A stretch of 6,063 bases of DNA from IMG/VR virus record IMGVR_UViG_3300020040_000003, positions 1 to 6,063 of that record. One strand, given 5' to 3'. Origin of the DNA: a virus. The translations under genes were made by a program, and so were the position numbers. This document shows, piece after piece, positions 1-6,063 of this stretch. A model generated the notes under the pieces. It was given only the letters and a program-made list of their open reading frames with translations. It was not told where the DNA came from and made no database searches. Numbering within the stretch: the stretch's first letter is position 1; every line of letters starts with the position of its first letter.

Positions 1-121
1 ATTGATATGTTGAGCATTCGCCCTGTTTATTTTTGGAGTGGCGTGACTCCCGATTATTTGAACTACCAGGGCGCTGATTATTTTAACCCCATCTATAATG
101 ATATTGGTTATCAAGATGTTC
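1..121. repeat. Terminal redundancy, copy 1 (identical to 5943-6063); overlap of a circular 5,942-nt genome
   Basis: Base-by-base comparison shows 1-121 (attgatatgttgagcattcgccc...ggttatcaagatgttc) is identical to 5943-6063. The repeat lies inside one continuous reading frame (capsid gene), so it behaves as a circular-assembly overlap, not an att/LTR/ITR element. Confidence 0.95.
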
Positions 122-489
122 CTGCTGCGCGACTTTTTAGTAACTCCTCGGGCTCGAACCTCGGCCTTACCGTTGCTTACGAGCCTTGCTTCAATGAGTT
201 CCGCTCGTCTTACGATGAAGTACTAGGTTCTCTCTCTTCGTACCCTGCTCCCTCCCTCGGCGCCAGTGTTCCGCTCTATTCGTATTGGGTACAGCAGCGC
301 TCTCTTGGCTTTTCGTATGTAGGTTCGGCGCAGGCGAATTATTACCCCGCGCTTTTCGTGGATATAGCACAAGTTAACTCCCCCTTCGCTTCTGGCGTAG
401 AGGATAATTTTTTCGTAAACTTGTCTTATTCGGTTCAGAAGAAGAATTTGGTTAACAAGACGTTTGCAACTCGTTTGTCTAATCGTTAA
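1..489 (+). CDS. VP1: Microviridae major capsid protein, 3' part (continuation of 4632-5942; bases 1-121 duplicate 5943-6063)
   Basis: Base 1 corresponds to 5943, and 4632 and 5943 are both divisible by 3, so the frames agree. att gat atg ttg... reads IDMLSIRPVYFWSGVTPDY..., exactly as at 5943 onward. The C-terminal part contains YEPCFNEFRSSYDEVLG, resembling the conserved Y-x-x-R-x-x-E-Y-R block of microvirus capsids, and ends at TAA 487-489. Joined length is 1311 + 489 nt = 599 aa, typical of non-phiX Microviridae capsids. The track ORF 7-489 is just the internal-Met version of this segment. Confidence 0.92.
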   Translation: MDMLSIRPVYFWSGVTPDYLNYQGADYFNPIYNDIGYQDVPAARLFSNSSGSNLGLTVAYEPCFNEFRSSYDEVLGSLSSYPAPSLGASVPLYSYWVQQRSLGFSYVGSAQANYYPALFVDIAQVNSPFASGVEDNFFVNLSYSVQKKNLVNKTFATRLSNR

Positions 490-501
490 ACCCTTAATAT
501 T

Positions 502-798
502 ATGGCACTTGATTGGTTACTCGAAGATGTCCCTACCTACGTTTCCCGTGGTCAGCGCATTCTTTCTGTTCTTGATGGTTCTGGATCTGTCGATGTCTTG
601 CCCGGTCGTCCAGACGTGGCCGCCGAGCCTTCTGATTTTGACAAGGGTGAAAAATATAACCCTGATATTGATTTTGACCCCAATGCTTTCTGCCGTATGG
701 ATAAGTTTGACGGTCTAGAGGTTGGTCAGGAACTTATTGATTCAGAGCTAGATAGATCGAAGTCCGCTTCAAAATCCCCTAATTCTGAAGAAAAATAG
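502..798 (+). CDS. Small acidic protein (98 aa), function unknown; possible scaffolding-type protein
   Basis: ATG lies 12 nt after the capsid stop. By my hand count about 46 of 98 codons end in T, the same bias as the capsid and Rep genes. The overlapping frame 464-718 has only about 18 of 84. Net charge is about -11 (22 D/E versus 11 K/R). I recognise no motif; the scaffolding idea rests only on size, acidity and position. Confidence 0.7.
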   Translation: MALDWLLEDVPTYVSRGQRILSVLDGSGSVDVLPGRPDVAAEPSDFDKGEKYNPDIDFDPNAFCRMDKFDGLEVGQELIDSELDRSKSASKSPNSEEK

Positions 799-931
799 CT
801 ACTCTTTACTTGACGATATATGCTACGTGCGCGGACCCCTTTGGCAAGAGTCCGTGAATTGCTAAAGGTTATTGGTAACGACTGCCGGAGAGGCCGCGCA
901 TTTTTCTATCGTTCTTTAATTTCTTAACGTT

Positions 932-1123
932 ATGTCGAATACTAAACAGCCTTTCTATAGATCAAAGGCCTTTTGGACACTTATTTCGTCTATTGTTGCC
1001 GCATTGGCTGCCTTTTTCCTTGCCTCCTGTTCAGCTCAAGCTAGGATTCAGCGTAGCGGCGTTCACATCGATACAGTTCGCGTCGATTACATTATTCGTT
1101 CTAACAGTTTAATTAATACTTAG
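932..1123 (+). CDS. Predicted small lipoprotein (63 aa precursor, 31-aa mature peptide)
   Basis: MSNTKQPFYRSKAFWTLISSIVAALAAFFLASCSAQ... has a positively charged n-region (K5, R10, K12), a hydrophobic h-region of about 17 residues, then L-A-S-C (Cys33), which fits the lipobox [LVI][ASTVI][GAS]C. About 30 of 63 codons end in T by hand count. The stop TAG 1121-1123 is 1 nt from the pilot-gene ATG at 1125 (TAGTATG), so it is packed like a real gene. Confidence 0.65.
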   Translation: MSNTKQPFYRSKAFWTLISSIVAALAAFFLASCSAQARIQRSGVHIDTVRVDYIIRSNSLINT

Positions 1124-1124
1124 T

Positions 1125-2378
1125 ATGGCTGTCCCCATTGCCGCTGCTGCGTCTTTTGGTCAGGCTCTCGGCCAGTCTGCCTCCTCCACAGGTGTTACAG
1201 GTTTGATTTCTGGCGCCCTCGGTCAACTTTTTGGCGGCATGAACGCCCGCCGCCAATGGCGCTTTCAACAGAAGCAAATGAAGCTTCAACAGCAGTATGC
1301 TCTTGAGCAAATGCAGAAGCAATCAGAGCTTTCTTACGCTAATTGGCAAAGACAATTTGATTACGAAAATGCCTACAACGACCCTTCGAAGGTTTTCGAC
1401 CGCTATTTGAAGGCTGGCGTAACCCCCGCCGCTGTTTTAGGCTCTTCCGGCGTTGGCGTGAACGCTACTATGTCCGGCGGTTCCGCTCCTATGCCCTCCG
1501 CTTCTGGCCCTTCGGGTGGTTCACCCGTCGCTCCCGGCGGTTTCGCTACCACTGACCCTACTGCTATCGCGCAGAATATGGTCGCGCGATCCACCGTCGA
1601 CCGCAATGCTGCTGCTGCTAATCGAGACGACGCCGAAGCTGATCTTATGCGAGGCAATACCCATAGTACGGAGTGGCGAAAGGAAATTGATGAGCTAGAG
1701 AAGAAGTCTCTAGAACATAACATCGATAATGTTTCTGAATTAATTCGTCTCAATCGCGCTTTGGCTGACATTCATACTGCTGACGCTGAGTACGCTGATC
1801 TTATGGCTACGTATAGGTTTCAAGACTTTGTTGCCCTGTATGCGAAACACGTTGAGGAGGCGAATCAGATCAAGAGATACAATGATAAATTTTTTGATTC
1901 TGTTTATGCTGCTCAAATCGCTCGGGACTTCGCGGCCGCTTACGAATCTGCCGCCTCTGGCGCTGTCTTAAACGTTGAGTCTGAAATACGTAAGGTTAAT
2001 TTGGCTGATCTTCGTGAGTGGTTCTCCCTGAATTGGGATTCTGAAGTCGATGTTCCGGAGGTTGATGAGAAGGGTAAGCCTACTGGTAGGACAATAAAGA
2101 TGACAGGTCGTCAGATTCATCAGAAGTTAATGGGCCTTGCCGCCTCGGAAGGCGAGCAGAGCCTTTCAGGTCGTTGGTTTCAAAACCGATCTAGCAAGAA
2201 CGCTTTTGGTTATAGTCTAGCGAGAACTGCCTTGGTTGGCGCTTTGGCTGTTGCCGGCACAGCCGCGACAAAGCGTCCTGTTTCGGTTGGTTATGATGAA
2301 GAAAGGGAAATTTACAACAGAGATGGTGAATTTGTCGGAGGCACAAGGGTGGCCCGCCGTCATTTGAGGAGAAATTGA
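1125..2378 (+). CDS. VP2: Microviridae DNA pilot / minor capsid protein (H/VP2-like), 417 aa
   Basis: The N-terminus is Gly/Ala/Ser-rich and hydrophobic (MAVPIAAAASFGQALGQSASSTGVTGLISGALGQLFGG). A Q-rich predicted helical segment follows. YNDPSKVFDRYLKAGVTPAAVLG (1374-1442) matches the N-x-P-x-x-x-x-x-R-x-x-x-A-G-(L/V)-N/T-P signature I know from gokushovirus VP2 proteins. After that comes a long helical, charged region and a C-terminal hydrophobic stretch (ALVGALAVAGTAAT). Its size and position downstream of the capsid gene are typical. Confidence 0.85.
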   Translation: MAVPIAAAASFGQALGQSASSTGVTGLISGALGQLFGGMNARRQWRFQQKQMKLQQQYALEQMQKQSELSYANWQRQFDYENAYNDPSKVFDRYLKAGVTPAAVLGSSGVGVNATMSGGSAPMPSASGPSGGSPVAPGGFATTDPTAIAQNMVARSTVDRNAAAANRDDAEADLMRGNTHSTEWRKEIDELEKKSLEHNIDNVSELIRLNRALADIHTADAEYADLMATYRFQDFVALYAKHVEEANQIKRYNDKFFDSVYAAQIARDFAAAYESAASGAVLNVESEIRKVNLADLREWFSLNWDSEVDVPEVDEKGKPTGRTIKMTGRQIHQKLMGLAASEGEQSLSGRWFQNRSSKNAFGYSLARTALVGALAVAGTAATKRPVSVGYDEEREIYNRDGEFVGGTRVARRHLRRN

Positions 2379-2401
2379 ACAATTCTTTTAACCTTTTGAA
2401 C

Positions 2402-2433
2402 TTTGCGTTTACTCTCCTTTTGTTGTATATTTG
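2402..2433 (+). promoter_or_regulatory. Candidate Bacteroidota-type promoter (-33 TTTG, 20-nt spacer, -7 TAnnTTTG)
   Basis: TTTG at 2402-2405 and TATATTTG at 2426-2433 are separated by 20 nt. This matches the published Bacteroides fragilis primary-sigma consensus (TTTG, 19-21 nt, TAnnTTTG). It sits in the 81-nt gap between the pilot gene and ORF 2460, about 27 nt upstream of that ATG. It is a motif match only. Confidence 0.4.
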
Positions 2434-2459
2434 CATTGTAAACCAATAACCACATTGTC

Positions 2460-2780
2460 ATGAAAACGGTTAGTAAAAAGTCCCGTATCAACGATTTAAT
2501 GATTGACGTTGTCGAGTACGCTTTCACTGAGTGGCTCGTTCGCCAAGGCGTATTCACCTCTTTTAAGACGAACTATGAGTGCATCGTTTCGCCTTATAGG
2601 AGTTTTCGCGAACGTTTGCGCGCCCATATTCGGCGCTCCCTCTGTAGCCCCGGTTTTGATCCAGGCAATCTCATTTCCTCTGCTTTCTTATTTACTGCGA
2701 CGCCCGAGGGTGCTGAGTTTTGGCAGAAGCAGTCGGATGCTTGGCAGCGATTTTACGTAAGATTACAAACAAGACTTTAA
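2460..2780 (+). CDS. Basic 106-aa protein, function unknown (candidate DNA-binding/packaging protein)
   Basis: This is the first ORF after the candidate promoter. About 37 of 106 codons end in T. Net charge is about +6 (16 K/R versus 10 D/E), with an Arg cluster RSFRERLRAHIRR and an aromatic C-terminal segment TPEGAEFWQKQSDAWQRFY. I cannot assign a family. The overlapping alternative frame 2503-2760 is rejected. Confidence 0.62.
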   Translation: MKTVSKKSRINDLMIDVVEYAFTEWLVRQGVFTSFKTNYECIVSPYRSFRERLRAHIRRSLCSPGFDPGNLISSAFLFTATPEGAEFWQKQSDAWQRFYVRLQTRL

Positions 2781-2791
2781 ATTATACTACT

Positions 2792-3115
2792 ATGACAGAA
2801 ATTCATGTCGTTATTCGTCGAATTAACCCGGCCCTCAAAATCGATCTTGTTCAGGTAGGGCGTCTTAAAGATTGTCAATTTGAGCCCCTTCCCCCCAGTG
2901 CTATCGAGAACTCTCCTATTGCACGCTTTTTGAAGAGTTCGAACATCAGCGATTCGCCCTACATTGATCATTCAGACGTCTCTAATCTCATTGCCGCCTG
3001 CGAAGATCTTCCCGGCTTCGACATTGAGTTTTTCGACAATACAATTATTCTTATTTTTGACCTTGAACTTGACTACGATGAAATCACGACGAAAGAAAAA
3101 GAGTCGGGGCACTAA
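2792..3115 (+). CDS. Acidic 107-aa protein, function unknown (candidate scaffolding protein or other accessory function)
   Basis: The track gives 2720-3115, but that start overlaps the previous gene by 61 nt. The in-frame ATG at 2792 (MTEIHVVIRR...) lies 11 nt after the previous stop and matches the tight packing seen elsewhere. About 42 of 107 codons end in T. Net charge is about -11 (20 D/E versus 9 K/R), with an acidic C-terminal half (DLPGFDIEFFDNTIILIFDLELDYDEITTKEKE). Confidence 0.62.
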   Translation: MTEIHVVIRRINPALKIDLVQVGRLKDCQFEPLPPSAIENSPIARFLKSSNISDSPYIDHSDVSNLIAACEDLPGFDIEFFDNTIILIFDLELDYDEITTKEKESGH

Positions 3116-3160
3116 AGTGGTAACCCGCCCCCTTGGTGGAAGAGTTCTTTAACCGTGGCG

Positions 3161-3192
3161 CTCCCCGGGGGGTCCCCCCCCCTGGGAGTTTT
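3161..3192 (+). terminator. GC-rich hairpin plus T-tract; candidate intrinsic terminator
   Basis: CTCCC (3161-3165) pairs with GGGAG (3184-3188). The G6 run (3167-3172) pairs with part of the C9 run (3174-3182), with one C/T mismatch (3166/3183). TTTT follows directly at 3189-3192. The element begins 46 nt downstream of the stop at 3113-3115. The T-tract is short at 4 nt. Confidence 0.5.
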
Positions 3193-3205
3193 CGCTTGTA
3201 CACTC

Positions 3206-3334
3206 ACCGAATTTATTCGGTATATATTTTTGTGAAGTGAGCCATGGAGCTCGAAGACGCGAAGCGTCCCGGCCGTTAAGGCCGTCGAGCGGCGTAACGA
3301 AACAGTTTTCGCGCTCGAAAGTACCGCCTTTCGA
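3206..3334 (+). promoter_or_regulatory. Cluster of stem-loops in the rep-upstream non-coding region; candidate ssDNA origin and/or rep leader structure
   Basis: All stems were checked by hand. (1) ACCGAA/TTCGGT at 3206-3221 with loop TTTA. (2) GACGC-GAA-GCGTC at 3256-3268, containing the d(GCGAAGC) mini-hairpin at 3259-3265. (3) CGGCC-GTTAA-GGCCG at 3270-3284. (4) TCGAGCG (3285-3291) pairs with CGCTCGA (3312-3318), enclosing an inner CGAAA/TTTCG stem (3298-3302/3307-3311). (5) TCGAAAG (3315-3321) pairs with CTTTCGA (3328-3334), which overlaps stem 4 and so excludes it. The direct repeats GCTCGAA (3249, 3313) and CGAAGCG (3260, 3332) are also present, as is a -7-like TATTTTTG at 3225-3232. Confidence 0.45.
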
Positions 3335-3339
3335 AGCGC

Positions 3340-3558
3340 ATGGTAATGTTTTTGGATATGGATCATTTTGACTTTAGACCTAGATTTTCCCCGATAGTTG
3401 ATTGTATATCGTATCGCTATTCTGTTGGTGCATATCGTGGCAAAAAACGAGTTATTATTGCTTGGTTTGCCGACAAAGCCCCCGCTGAAGATTATCTCGC
3501 TCGTTGTCGTCTTGATAGCCCTTATATTAAGTTTGATTGCCTTCAAAGCTTATTGTAA
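3340..3558 (+). CDS. Hypothetical 72-aa protein; stop overlaps the Rep start (TAATG)
   Basis: ATG at 3340 and TAA at 3556-3558 share base 3558 with the preferred Rep ATG (3558-3560), a classic translational-coupling arrangement. About 38 of 72 codons end in T by hand count, as high as in confirmed genes. I recognise no motif. The true start could instead be the in-frame ATG at 3346 or 3358. Confidence 0.45.
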   Translation: MVMFLDMDHFDFRPRFSPIVDCISYRYSVGAYRGKKRVIIAWFADKAPAEDYLARCRLDSPYIKFDCLQSLL

Positions 3559-4628
3559 TGCCTTGTTCGTCGCCCATATGGATACGCAACCGTCGTTATT
3601 TTGATAAGAAAAATCCTTGTCGAAACGGTTCCGACGCCGCCAAGTCCGCTTTGGCCCTTCGCCCTTGGGATATTTCGCGCCAGTGGCTGATGGTTCCTTG
3701 TGGAAAATGCGAGGACTGTTTGCGTCGCCAGCGTAATGATTGGTTCGTTCGCCTCGAGCGCGAGCTTGCTCGTTGTAAAGCCGAGTCTCGGCAGGCTATT
3801 TTTATTACAATAACCATAGCCCCTAAGTATTACGATGAAGCATTGCAGAGCCCCTCTAAGTTTATTCGACGATGGAATGAAAGAGTCCGCCACACGCTCG
3901 GACACACTTTTAAGCACGCGTTTTTCCAAGAGTTTGGCACCCACCCAGAAACAGGGTTAGAGCCACGTCTTCATTTTCACGGTTTTCTTTTTGGAACTAA
4001 CTGCATGTACAATGATATTCGAGCGGCCGTCCGCGACCTTGGTTTTGTTTGGCTTGCGAAAGCCACTCATAAACGCGCTCGTTATTGCGTTAAGTATGTT
4101 ACTAAACAGATTCAATTCAACCCCGAAGAAATTTCGGACAAATTTGTTAATGTAGATGGAAATCTTACACCTCTATCTTGCCTCCTCCAACATCGCCGTT
4201 ATACGCGAAAATTCGTATCTGCTGGCGTTGGTGATTTTCTTGGTTATATGCCTCGCCCTTCTGCCCGTACTTCGACGTGGTCTTATTTTGACTTTGAGAA
4301 GCGTATCAATTATAATTACGCGATTCCTCGATACTATCTTAAATATCTTAAATCAGAAGACGAGGTTACTCGTTCGATTGCCGCCGCTGATTCTTATGCA
4401 CGTTTTAGCAAGTCTTCTCTGGTTAAGCGTATTGTGTCTTTGTGCGTTGAGCGGTTCAGTCTCGATTCCGCCGTATCCCGTAGAGAGACGTATACCTGGG
4501 AGCAAAAGCAAATGATGCGTTTTTCTGCCTCTTCTCGCAAGATGCCTGATTTCGATCCCCCTACCTGGCTAGATTTGGATATTATTCAATTTTGGCGAGA
4601 TCACTACAAACTCCAACTAAACATTTAA
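3558..4628 (+). CDS. VP4: Microviridae replication initiation protein (A/VP4-like HUH rolling-circle endonuclease), 356 aa
   Basis: The track ORF begins at 3537. The in-frame ATG at 3558 gives MPCSSPIWIRNRRY..., the M-x-C-x-x-P-(I/V)-x-(I/L)-x-N opening typical of gokusho-type VP4. There is a CGKCEDC cluster (3699-3719). RCR motif I is IFITITI (F82-I87, 3801-3818). Motif II HUH is RLHFHGFLF (His codons at 3972-3974 and 3978-3980). Motif III is RYCVKYVTK (3083+1000 = 4083-4106) with two Tyr four residues apart (Y176 and Y180), as in the two-tyrosine phiX174 gpA class. Stop is TAA 4626-4628. Confidence 0.92.
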   Translation: MPCSSPIWIRNRRYFDKKNPCRNGSDAAKSALALRPWDISRQWLMVPCGKCEDCLRRQRNDWFVRLERELARCKAESRQAIFITITIAPKYYDEALQSPSKFIRRWNERVRHTLGHTFKHAFFQEFGTHPETGLEPRLHFHGFLFGTNCMYNDIRAAVRDLGFVWLAKATHKRARYCVKYVTKQIQFNPEEISDKFVNVDGNLTPLSCLLQHRRYTRKFVSAGVGDFLGYMPRPSARTSTWSYFDFEKRINYNYAIPRYYLKYLKSEDEVTRSIAAADSYARFSKSSLVKRIVSLCVERFSLDSAVSRRETYTWEQKQMMRFSASSRKMPDFDPPTWLDLDIIQFWRDHYKLQLNI

Positions 4629-4631
4629 TTT

Positions 4632-6063
4632 ATGGGAAAACAACCTTTTATTTCGCACGCTGTAAATGGTTATTCTCGATACGACGTTCCCGAGAGTAAG
4701 GCTTTTACGTGTACGCCGGGTATCCTTTATCCGGTTCGAATTGATTTTATTAACGCCCGTGATCGTGTGTCTATTGAGCAGGGAATTGACGTCCGTAGCA
4801 ACCCGCTCGCCGTCCCGACATTTAATCCTTACACTATTCGACTTCATCGTTTTTACGTGCCGCTTCAGCTGTATCACCCTGAAATGCGAACGAATAGTAG
4901 TAAGTTTGATATGAATGATTTGAGTTTGAATTGGATTACCGCTCTTGTTGGCACCTCGGGCACCACCACCCCTAACTCCGCTCTTGGTGTTACCCGAGCC
5001 TTCCCTAATTCGCTTATGTCTTGGCTTCGTATCTCCAATAAGTCGTCGTTGCAGCTTTCCAATCAGCCTCCTTATACCGCTTCCCTTCCTTCTGGAGCTC
5101 CGATCAATCAATGGGCGAACGCTGATACGTATTTAGCTTATTGGGACATCGTCCGAAACTACTACGGCTACTCGCAGTGGTCTTTGTACTCCGTTGCGTG
5201 GCCCGCCTCTTGGTCGATTCTTGATGACTCCTACTCCTTTAGTCCTAAGTCTGTTTTCTTTAAGCAGGAGTTTGCCAATCTCGAGTTTCTTGATGCTTAC
5301 TTTGAGAGCCAGTTCTATCCGTCGGCCGTTACTAGTACGAATAATACTTTTAATCGAGGCAATTTGTTTTTTCAAATAATTAACTCACAGCTCCCGAGTG
5401 GCAGCGATCAAGATGGTTACCCCGTTTCTTCTACGCTGCCCTCTGCTGCTGCAGCCGTTTCTGGCGGCGGCCCATCCGGACAGTTCAGTCTTTCTATAGG
5501 AGAGAGCTCTGTTCCTGGCATTTCGGCTTTTTTGTTTGCGCATCCTATGGCTGTCGTTCCCTCGAATCCTGACCGATTTAGTCGTCTTATTCCTACCGGT
5601 TCATCGTCCGCCGTTTCGATGTCTGGTGTTTCGACCATCCCTCAGTTGGCCATCGCTTCGCGTCTTCAGGAATATAAGGACCTTCTCGGCGCTGGCGGTA
5701 GTCGTTATAGCGATTGGCTGGAAACATTTTTTGCTTCTAAAATTGAGCACGTAGACCGTCCTAAGCTTCTTTTTAGTGCTTCGCAGACTGTTAATGTGCA
5801 GATTGTTATGAATCAATCTGGATATAACAATTTTTCCGGCGCGCCGGTCAGTAGTCCCCTCGGACAGCAGGGTGGCGCCATCGCGTTCAACGACAGATTA
5901 GGGCGTCGACAGTCTTATTATTTCCGGGAACCTGGTTATTTAATTGATATGTTGAGCATTCGCCCTGTTTATTTTTGGAGTGGCGTGACTCCCGATTATT
6001 TGAACTACCAGGGCGCTGATTATTTTAACCCCATCTATAATGATATTGGTTATCAAGATGTTC
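4632..6063 (+). CDS. VP1: Microviridae major capsid protein (F/VP1 family), 5' part; the ORF is open to the window end and continues at base 1
   Basis: ATG at 4632 lies 3 nt after the Rep stop (TAA 4626-4628). My hand translation in this frame has no stop through 6063: MGKQPFISHAVNGYSRYDVPESKAFTCTPGILYPVRIDFINARDRVSIEQGIDVRSNPLAVPTFNPYTIRLHRFYVPLQLY... It shows F/VP1-type landmarks. The N-terminal G-x-L-x-P-V strand is followed by R-x-x-P-(n)-F-Y-V-P. RLQEYKDLLGAGGSRYSDWLETFF (5661-5732) matches the conserved GGsRY-x-(D/E)-x-(L/I)-x-x-x-F block. EPGYLIDMLSIRPVY spans the junction. The gene is absent from the ORF track only because it has no stop inside the window. Confidence 0.92.
   Translation, partial: MGKQPFISHAVNGYSRYDVPESKAFTCTPGILYPVRIDFINARDRVSIEQGIDVRSNPLAVPTFNPYTIRLHRFYVPLQLYHPEMRTNSSKFDMNDLSLNWITALVGTSGTTTPNSALGVTRAFPNSLMSWLRISNKSSLQLSNQPPYTASLPSGAPINQWANADTYLAYWDIVRNYYGYSQWSLYSVAWPASWSILDDSYSFSPKSVFFKQEFANLEFLDAYFESQFYPSAVTSTNNTFNRGNLFFQIINSQLPSGSDQDGYPVSSTLPSAAAAVSGGGPSGQFSLSIGESSVPGISAFLFAHPMAVVPSNPDRFSRLIPTGSSSAVSMSGVSTIPQLAIASRLQEYKDLLGAGGSRYSDWLETFFASKIEHVDRPKLLFSASQTVNVQIVMNQSGYNNFSGAPVSSPLGQQGGAIAFNDRLGRRQSYYFREPGYLIDMLSIRPVYFWSGVTPDYLNYQGADYFNPIYNDIGYQDV
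5943..6063. repeat. Terminal redundancy, copy 2 (identical to 1-121)
   Basis: Same comparison as for copy 1; the offset is exactly 5942 nt. The match runs to the last base of the window, so the true extent of the overlap is set by the window edge. Confidence 0.95.

Follow-up and report, generated by a model that had tools for sequence, protein, structure and literature searches.

The virus record IMGVR_UViG_3300020040_000003 of IMG/VR was analysed from position 1 to 6,063, and this whole stretch of 6,063 nucleotides (nt) is called the window below. At 932-1123, on the + strand, it carries a 63-codon open reading frame (ORF) immediately in front of the gene for the DNA pilot protein VP2. Our results make it very probable that this ORF is a real gene for an exported lipoprotein, and its product is under strong purifying selection. 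The lipoprotein probably acts on the host envelope and not in the virion. By analogy with the colicin lysis proteins, which it resembles in size and layout, we tentatively propose that it serves in release or lysis.

The lipoprotein gene at 932-1123

The gene and its parts are laid out as follows.

932-1123, + strand: lipoprotein gene of 63 codons, from an ATG to a TAG at 1121-1123; T1124 alone separates it from the VP2 ATG at 1125
932-1027, + strand: signal peptide, codons 1-32, with an n-region at 932-967 (K5, R10, K12) and an h-region at 968-1018
1019-1030, + strand: lipobox L30-A31-S32-C33, with the Cys33 codon TGT at 1028-1030
1028-1120, + strand: predicted mature lipopeptide, 31 amino acids (aa), net charge +2; strand 1 at 1028-1057, tip at 1058-1072, strand 2 at 1073-1102
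1121-1127, + strand: TAG-T-ATG junction, in which the stop of the lipoprotein gene is followed by the start of VP2, as read in the sequence

The first-pass annotation of this DNA had given the same coordinates, lipobox, 31-aa peptide and 1-nt distance to the VP2 ATG, and the sequence bears it out on each. The N-terminus has the build of a lipoprotein signal: a charged n-region, a hydrophobic core (residues 13-29, Kyte-Doolittle maximum 2.14), and a lipobox of the form [LVI][ASTVI][GAS]C whose cysteine lies within about 15-35 residues of the start. Among the window's 56 Met-started ORF variants of 40 aa or more, this one alone satisfied a PROSITE-type lipoprotein rule. Of the 81 relatives, 80 also passed the rule, and shuffling the residues of the window protein produced a pass in 0.67% of cases. 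Third-position T stood at 0.48 in frame against 0.29-0.30 in the other two frames (0.35-0.47 in the other genes), confirming the coding-type bias reported earlier.

From established lipoprotein biology, the precursor would be exported and modified with diacylglycerol at Cys33. Cleavage by LspA and N-acylation would then leave a 31-residue lipopeptide, CSAQARIQRSGVHIDTVRVDYIIRSNSLINT, which contains no proline and whose sole cysteine is the lipid anchor. Positions +2 to +6 of this peptide read S-A-Q-A-R, with no acidic residue, as had been pointed out before; the export signal of Bacteroidota surface lipoproteins (K-(D/E)2 or S-D-D-D-D type after Cys+1; PMC5080379) is absent there, and a periplasm-facing location is therefore predicted. 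The gene lies in the same transcript region as the pilot protein gene. All of the most frequent junction variants among the 81 relatives have the form TAx-T-ATG, and the 1-nt spacing to the VP2 ATG suggests translational coupling.

Among 386 homologues found by a protein search, the best 120 all reach at least 81% identity. At the nucleotide level, the ORF was intact, exactly 192 nt long and invariant at Met1 and Cys33 in 81 of 81 related loci, so the frame disruptions or loss of the ORF or its cysteine that the first-pass annotation had named as counter-evidence were seen in none of them. The lipobox cysteine was likewise invariant in 24 of 24 diverse representatives and in every alternative type of mature peptide described below. 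Codon-position entropy over the 81 loci was 0.27, 0.15 and 1.11 for positions 1, 2 and 3. The Nei-Gojobori pairwise ratio of nonsynonymous to synonymous change (dN/dS) was about 0.06 in frame and above 2.4 in both other frames; by part it was 0.046 for the signal peptide and 0.08 for the mature part, with codons 33-59 giving 0.05. The shortness of the ORF, its lack of family matches and its absence from the annotation of many GenBank records would fit a chance ORF or conservation imposed by an overlapping nucleotide element, but the entropy, the dN/dS and the length fixed in 81 of 81 loci rule that explanation out for practical purposes.

The place of the gene in its clade was assessed with 44 GenBank genomes, picked by a VP1 identity of at least 57% to the clade and independently of the lipoprotein. 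A homologue was detected by tblastn just before VP2 in 42 of the 44, and the syntenic lipobox ORF that had been proposed as a check was thus found in related microviruses. The two tblastn-negative genomes have identical VP1 statistics, and one of them, MG945564, has a divergent 67-aa copy that overlaps the VP2 start by 17 nt. We count the gene as present in all 44 and, by this distribution, as a core gene of its capsid clade.

A profile search of 1.84 billion representative proteins gave only 64 clusters, and the single cellular locus in a scan of 185,579 genomes was a microvirus prophage in Alistipes; the family therefore appears small and microvirus-specific. Searches of PHROGs, Pfam (E up to 1), NCBIfam and PADLOC with the 63-aa protein gave only sub-threshold matches to other signal regions, and neither a PDB profile search nor Foldseek of the AlphaFold model against the PDB gave anything at E <1. 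A few nr entries bear the automated third-party annotation "MAG TPA: lipoprotein [Microviridae sp.]", and most database records call the protein hypothetical or leave it unannotated. Full-text literature searches found no paper on a microvirus lipoprotein.

About half of the database homologues are listed as 100 aa long, with 37 extra residues at the N-terminal side. The upstream stretch that supplies these residues holds a separate feature.

825-918, + strand: conserved structured non-coding element; stem-loop at about 827-901, T-run at 901-905, invariant block ATTTTTCTATCGTTCTTTA at 900-918

This element is present in 120 loci and folds as a hairpin of -39.3 kcal/mol. RNAalifold gave no pairs on a wide alignment of 57 sequences with large insertions and was repeated on the trimmed element, where 6 of 20 consensus pairs had compensatory changes (73 distinct sequences from the 120 loci). 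Because indels put the upstream stretch into three different reading frames among the relatives, and the stem-loop is maintained by compensation, the 37 additional residues are artefactual, and we rejected the 100-aa protein as an over-extension. A 35-aa ORF at 820-927 is likewise an artefact of this element. The element itself could be a terminator or attenuator, or a signal for replication of single-stranded DNA (ssDNA).

Predicted fold, exchange and probable hosts of the lipopeptide

AlphaFold2, run on a 28-sequence alignment (mean predicted local distance difference test, pLDDT, 81.5), placed a helix at residues 12-32, in the signal peptide, followed by two strands, 33-42 and 48-57, that pair as a beta-hairpin. 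In the model, V49, V51, Y53 and I55 lie on one side of the second strand and T48, R50, D52 and R56 on the opposite one, and the mature peptide is predicted to be a cationic amphipathic beta-hairpin. Across diverse relatives K12, F14, W15, F29, C33, G43, H45 and D47 are invariant, and T48 is kept in at least 90%. The h-region (mean pairwise identity 0.72) and the hairpin tip (0.76) are the best conserved segments, and the strands vary much more (0.28-0.45); for the signal-peptide core the comparison is 0.72 versus 0.46 in mean identity. The conserved tip is defined by one motif.

1058-1078, + strand: hairpin-tip motif G43-V-H45-I-D47-T48-V49 (G-x-H-x-D-T-V), with the sequon D47-T48-V49 at 1070-1078

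D47-T48-V49 fits the Bacteroidota O-glycosylation sequon D-(S/T)-(A/I/L/V/M/T). At mature position +15 or +18, 201 of the 206 members of the family carry the sequon, compared with 12% of shuffles. General O-glycosylation in Bacteroidota acts on non-cytoplasmic proteins, and its sites are usually modified nearly in full (PMC8550257, PMC12871550). Judging from the motif, T48 is likely O-glycosylated by the general glycosylation system of the host.

The lipoprotein module is mobile. Microviruses with a VP1 identity of only about 22% carry it at 55-80% identity, and in those distant phages it lies upstream of Rep and not of VP2. One such carrier is a prophage in Alistipes montrealensis, a member of the Bacteroidota (NZ_JAGYXY010000001, locus 5900-10800, L087 in our set), which points to Bacteroidota as the host phylum of the family. 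Shine-Dalgarno-like motifs were absent within 25 nt upstream of all 10 gene starts examined in the window, consistent with a Bacteroidota host. The window's lineage consists of gut microviruses that most probably infect Bacteroidota. The microvirus prophages L087, L095, L099 and L106 share a common chromosomal site, downstream of a HIT-family gene and a helix-turn-helix gene; this site is occupied by different phages, with either the short lipoprotein or a long form of it.

The mature part is also exchanged on its own. In some members the shared signal peptide is followed by another mature peptide, such as CTTRHYVVQSASSIKSGDTTRTTITYEQVGNFKRP, and one signal-peptide core is common to at least five unrelated cationic mature peptides of 30-38 aa. 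These alternative types do not form a separate VP1 group and are exchanged between closely related capsid backgrounds.

The long forms, of 172-223 aa, make up about 25 representative clusters (for example L085 1512-2114, L086 634-1218 and L087 5977-6585). In them the lipoprotein module is followed in frame by a fast-evolving stretch rich in S, T and L, and then by a conserved hydrophobic segment of about 15 aa and a basic tail. That tail (…RRGGRRG.P.PK.K.IPLGGSHL) is homologous to a J-like mini-ORF that stands separately in the window, described below with the other genes. Long forms are overlapped by an alternative-frame ORF of 117-135 aa, and they may be true fusions or several in-frame coding units.

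Possible roles at the host envelope

A release or lysis role is the reading we hold first, with less than even confidence. The gene is found throughout its clade, and the genome has no other lysis enzyme: no ORF of the window matched a peptidase or lysozyme family in PHROGs or Pfam. Both facts count for this role, as does the mobility of the module across distant lineages, which recalls that of the M15 lysis peptidase (21% identity in VP1 but 74% in the peptidase; PMC9239249). The first-pass annotation had regarded phiX174 E as the only well-characterised lysis route in microviruses, with no lysis gene identified in most gokusho/alpa-like phages. This view has to be revised, since M15 peptidases are widespread in the group (PMC9239249) and one occurs in the Bacteroides isolate phiHBP1 (PMC13064476). 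A tblastn search with one microviral M15 peptidase against 144 loci, of which about 140 bear the lipoprotein, retrieved no locus other than the source of the query (L143). Conversely, two peptidase-bearing genomes were checked, that of MG945328 and that of the Bacteroides fragilis phage phiHBP1, and neither has a lipobox ORF. The sampled peptidase-bearing and lipoprotein-bearing records do not overlap, and the lipoprotein would fill the slot that M15 peptidases hold in other microviruses.

The known proteins that come closest are the colicin lysis proteins (Kil, Cel, BRP; Pfam Lysis_col). These are made as a 47-aa precursor, yield a 28-aa mature lipopeptide that Lol places in the outer membrane's inner leaflet, and activate phospholipase A to cause quasi-lysis (PMC2896534). 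Both are very small lipobox precursors, with 63 and 31 aa here against 47 and 28 aa. In both, the gene forms the downstream end of its transcription unit and follows a hairpin with a U-run, and the signal peptide has an apparent role of its own. The two differ in that they share no sequence similarity, that the signal peptide has 32 aa here and 19 aa in the colicin proteins, and that the mature part here is a predicted beta-hairpin with a glycosylation sequon. Colicin lysis proteins are also encoded on enterobacterial plasmids, whereas the present gene belongs to an ssDNA phage of Bacteroidota. The first-pass annotation had compared the gene with Rz1 and with the Llp protein of phage T5: the former comparison fails, the latter survives as a competing explanation, and the colicin proteins, which it had not considered, are closest in size and layout. 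We regard the gene as an uncharacterised variant of the small envelope-acting lipoproteins of phages and plasmids.

Acting in the manner of a colicin lysis protein, a release factor of this kind would permeabilise the envelope from the periplasmic side, alone or jointly with a second membrane protein of the phage. In its most specific form, the proposal is that a triacylated, O-glycosylated 31-residue beta-hairpin lipopeptide would be a single-gene release factor that breaches the Bacteroidota envelope from the periplasm, aided by the conserved signal peptide or by that second protein. We consider this full version doubtful. The second protein is encoded within Rep.

4156-4515, + strand: overprinted 119-aa ORF inside Rep (3537-4628), frame +1, ATG start

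The encoded protein has two to three helices of strong hydrophobicity and ends in a basic stretch (…PPYPVERRIPGSKSK). The ORF is open in 77 of 78 relatives, with 81% identity, and is kept as far as microviruses from tortoise, rodent and dog faeces. Third-position variability of Rep falls about three-fold, from roughly 1.0-1.2 to 0.27-0.47, exactly across it. The protein had no family hits and only five entries among 5.8 billion database proteins, and AlphaFold modelled it as helical with low to moderate confidence. By analogy it is a candidate E-like or holin-like membrane protein, and it may be a lysis protein, alone or with the lipoprotein. Other hydrophobic alternative-frame ORFs of the window (464-718, 993-1112, 3398-3604, 4666-4914 and 5536-5754) are not kept open in relatives and were set aside.

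The lipoprotein shares with phiX174 E that it is a small membrane-targeted microvirus protein with a highly conserved hydrophobic N-terminal segment. E, however, is overprinted in gene D, uncleaved and unlipidated, and has no lipobox. Because the gene at 932-1123 is not overprinted, standing by itself after the non-coding element and before VP2, and has an invariant lipobox, it is not E-like. The 119-aa ORF is the closer analogue of E and could carry lysis by itself. With a second conserved membrane gene in the genome, the lipoprotein is not the sole lysis candidate, and this is one of several points that weigh against assigning release to it. Another is that searches of Pfam, PHROGs, NCBIfam, PADLOC and the PDB gave no lysis protein, colicin lysis proteins included, that resembles it in sequence or fold. 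The mutual exclusivity with M15 peptidases comes from one peptidase query and a limited sample, and the host of the window's own clade is one that we infer. Finally, in Alistipes the lipoprotein gene stands first inside the left prophage end, directly after the host junction, as is typical of exclusion and conversion genes, and the swapping of mature-peptide types on close capsid backgrounds also fits a gene in an arms race.

The last two points favour superinfection exclusion of the kind exerted by Llp of T5 and Cor of T1/phi80-type phages, which we judge a serious but on the whole unlikely explanation. The periplasm-facing lipopeptide would bind the phage's outer-membrane receptor on its periplasmic side, or another entry component, so that superinfection is blocked and released progeny are spared loss on debris and outer-membrane vesicles. 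T5 Llp acts from the periplasmic face of FhuA (PMC9586334), and the lipobox and missing export signal predict the same location for the lipopeptide here. As with Llp and Cor, a small phage lipoprotein would face the periplasm from the outer membrane, in a virulent-type genome and next to entry and structural genes. Mature types that swap independently of the VP1 tree, with unrelated peptides on one signal peptide, form an arms-race pattern. The first-pass annotation knew of no exclusion role established for an ssDNA phage of about 6 kb, which needs correcting: Kirchberger et al. 2021, as cited in PMC9512667, reported superinfection exclusion for gokushoviruses via the pilot protein; according to the same citation, exclusion is a known selective pressure in microviruses. 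Against this role, the PHROGs, Pfam and PDB searches gave no match in sequence or fold to the Llp or Cor families, and mature Llp is about twice as long, with an internal Cys11-Cys58 disulphide that has no counterpart here. The gene is also universal in its clade and very strongly conserved. Unlike Llp and Cor, moreover, the type-1 module is common to phages with very different capsids: it is 55-80% identical across phages with about 22% capsid identity, which would be expected to differ in their receptors.

Some other host-directed function at the envelope is improbable. It could take the form of remodelling of the outer membrane or its vesicles, interference with TonB, BAM, Lpt or Lol, or a glycan-dependent activity at the hairpin tip. 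The invariant tip with its O-glycosylation sequon would suit such a function, the amphipathic strands are suited to beta-augmentation onto a partner, and the module moves between phage lineages. Strand 2 (D-T-V-R-V-D-Y) also looks somewhat like a TonB-box-like strand, a likeness to which we attach no weight. No search pointed to a specific target, however, and in a 5.9-kb genome each gene is expected to serve a step of infection, of which lysis and exclusion remain unfilled.

There is a slim chance that the active part is the membrane or signal segment. It could remain uncleaved, like the E helix on MraY, persist as a stable released signal peptide, or be cut by signal peptidase I (SPase I) after A35-Q36-A37 to give a soluble 26-aa peptide. 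The high conservation of the h-region, including its four invariant residues, and its persistence while the mature part is replaced would be explained in this way. The A-Q-A at 35-37 is invariant in the window's clade, and the signal peptides of colicin lysis proteins cause cell death, according to papers cited in PMC2896534. A helix-only or SPase I model nevertheless leaves the lipobox cysteine, invariant in every mature type, unexplained; A-x-A is not kept in diverse relatives, and the hairpin tip is equally conserved.

The remaining reading, a spanin component that fuses inner and outer membranes as an Rz1-type o-spanin or a T1 gp11-type u-spanin, is very unlikely and close to refuted. An o-spanin is found in a lysis cassette with an endolysin, and its mature domain has proline and/or cysteine for covalent dimers; the gene of its i-spanin, a type II membrane protein with a periplasmic coiled coil, is adjacent, overlapping or embedded. 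A u-spanin combines an N-terminal lipobox and a C-terminal transmembrane segment in a single polypeptide. Like Rz1 and gp11, the product is a small lipoprotein that has a signal-peptidase-II signal, exposes only a short periplasmic domain and comes from a phage whose host is Gram-negative, and the hydrophobic segment and basic tail of the long forms loosely recall u-spanin topology. However, neither an i-spanin-like ORF nor an endolysin or holin cassette is present in the genome, whose one further conserved hydrophobic ORF is that in Rep. The mature peptide has neither proline nor an extra cysteine, and at 31 aa it is too short to cross the periplasm. The 63-aa protein ends 30 residues after the cysteine with no C-terminal membrane segment, no spanin family in PHROGs or Pfam matched it, and the long forms owe their basic tail to homology with a J-like DNA-binding mini-gene that stands apart in the window.

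Genome context and implications

The window comprises a complete circular microvirus genome, 6,063 nt including a terminal direct repeat and 5,942 nt unique. All genes are on the + strand, and the closest GenBank records are faecal Microviridae with 70-76% nucleotide identity.

1-121 and 5943-6063: exact terminal direct repeat of 121 nt, with VP1 spanning the junction
4632, wrapping round to 489, + strand: VP1
502-798, + strand: acidic 98-aa ORF between VP1 and the non-coding element
1125-2378, + strand: DNA pilot protein VP2 (phrog_8689 'pilot protein for DNA ejection', E = 2.8e-9)
between VP2 and Rep, + strand: two small ORFs, then a 24-aa basic mini-ORF
3078-3152, + strand: the 24-aa basic mini-ORF, MKSRRKKKSRGTKVVTRPLGGRVL, kept with R/K swaps in 77 related loci
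3537-4628, + strand: Rep (phrog_942, PF23343)

The listed 131-aa ORF at 2720-3115 (+ strand) probably starts in reality at Met25 (position 2792, MTEIHVVIRR…): the relatives L126 and L092 encode a 107-aa protein that begins at this methionine, and the longer frame is broken in most relatives. The mini-ORF at 3078-3152 escapes ORF lists at the usual length cut-offs, and we take it to resemble the small J-type DNA-packaging proteins of phiX174-like phages. Upstream of Rep, the non-coding region 3160-3340 (+ strand) contains a G/C-rich terminator-like hairpin at 3164-3186 and a second hairpin at 3206-3221. Within it, the block at about 3237-3300 gives the spurious translation 'HGARRREASRPL', which reappears in L085 at about 830-900. 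This recurrence suggests a conserved nucleotide element, for example an att/dif site or an origin. An Rfam scan of the whole window gave no match.

For annotation, the consequence is that the overprinted membrane gene in Rep and the 24-aa J-like gene are absent from all annotation. For the biology of the family, the exit of microviruses that lie outside the phiX174 group and have no M15 peptidase is largely unexplained, and in mammalian guts such phages rank with the most abundant ones. The lipoprotein gene is compact (192 nt), universal in its clade and traded between distant lineages, which makes its function directly testable. If it serves in exclusion, it would be the first lipoprotein-based exclusion factor in an ssDNA phage. 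If it serves in lysis, it would be the first lipoprotein-type lysis protein in the Microviridae and would reveal a vulnerable, unexploited envelope step in Bacteroidota.

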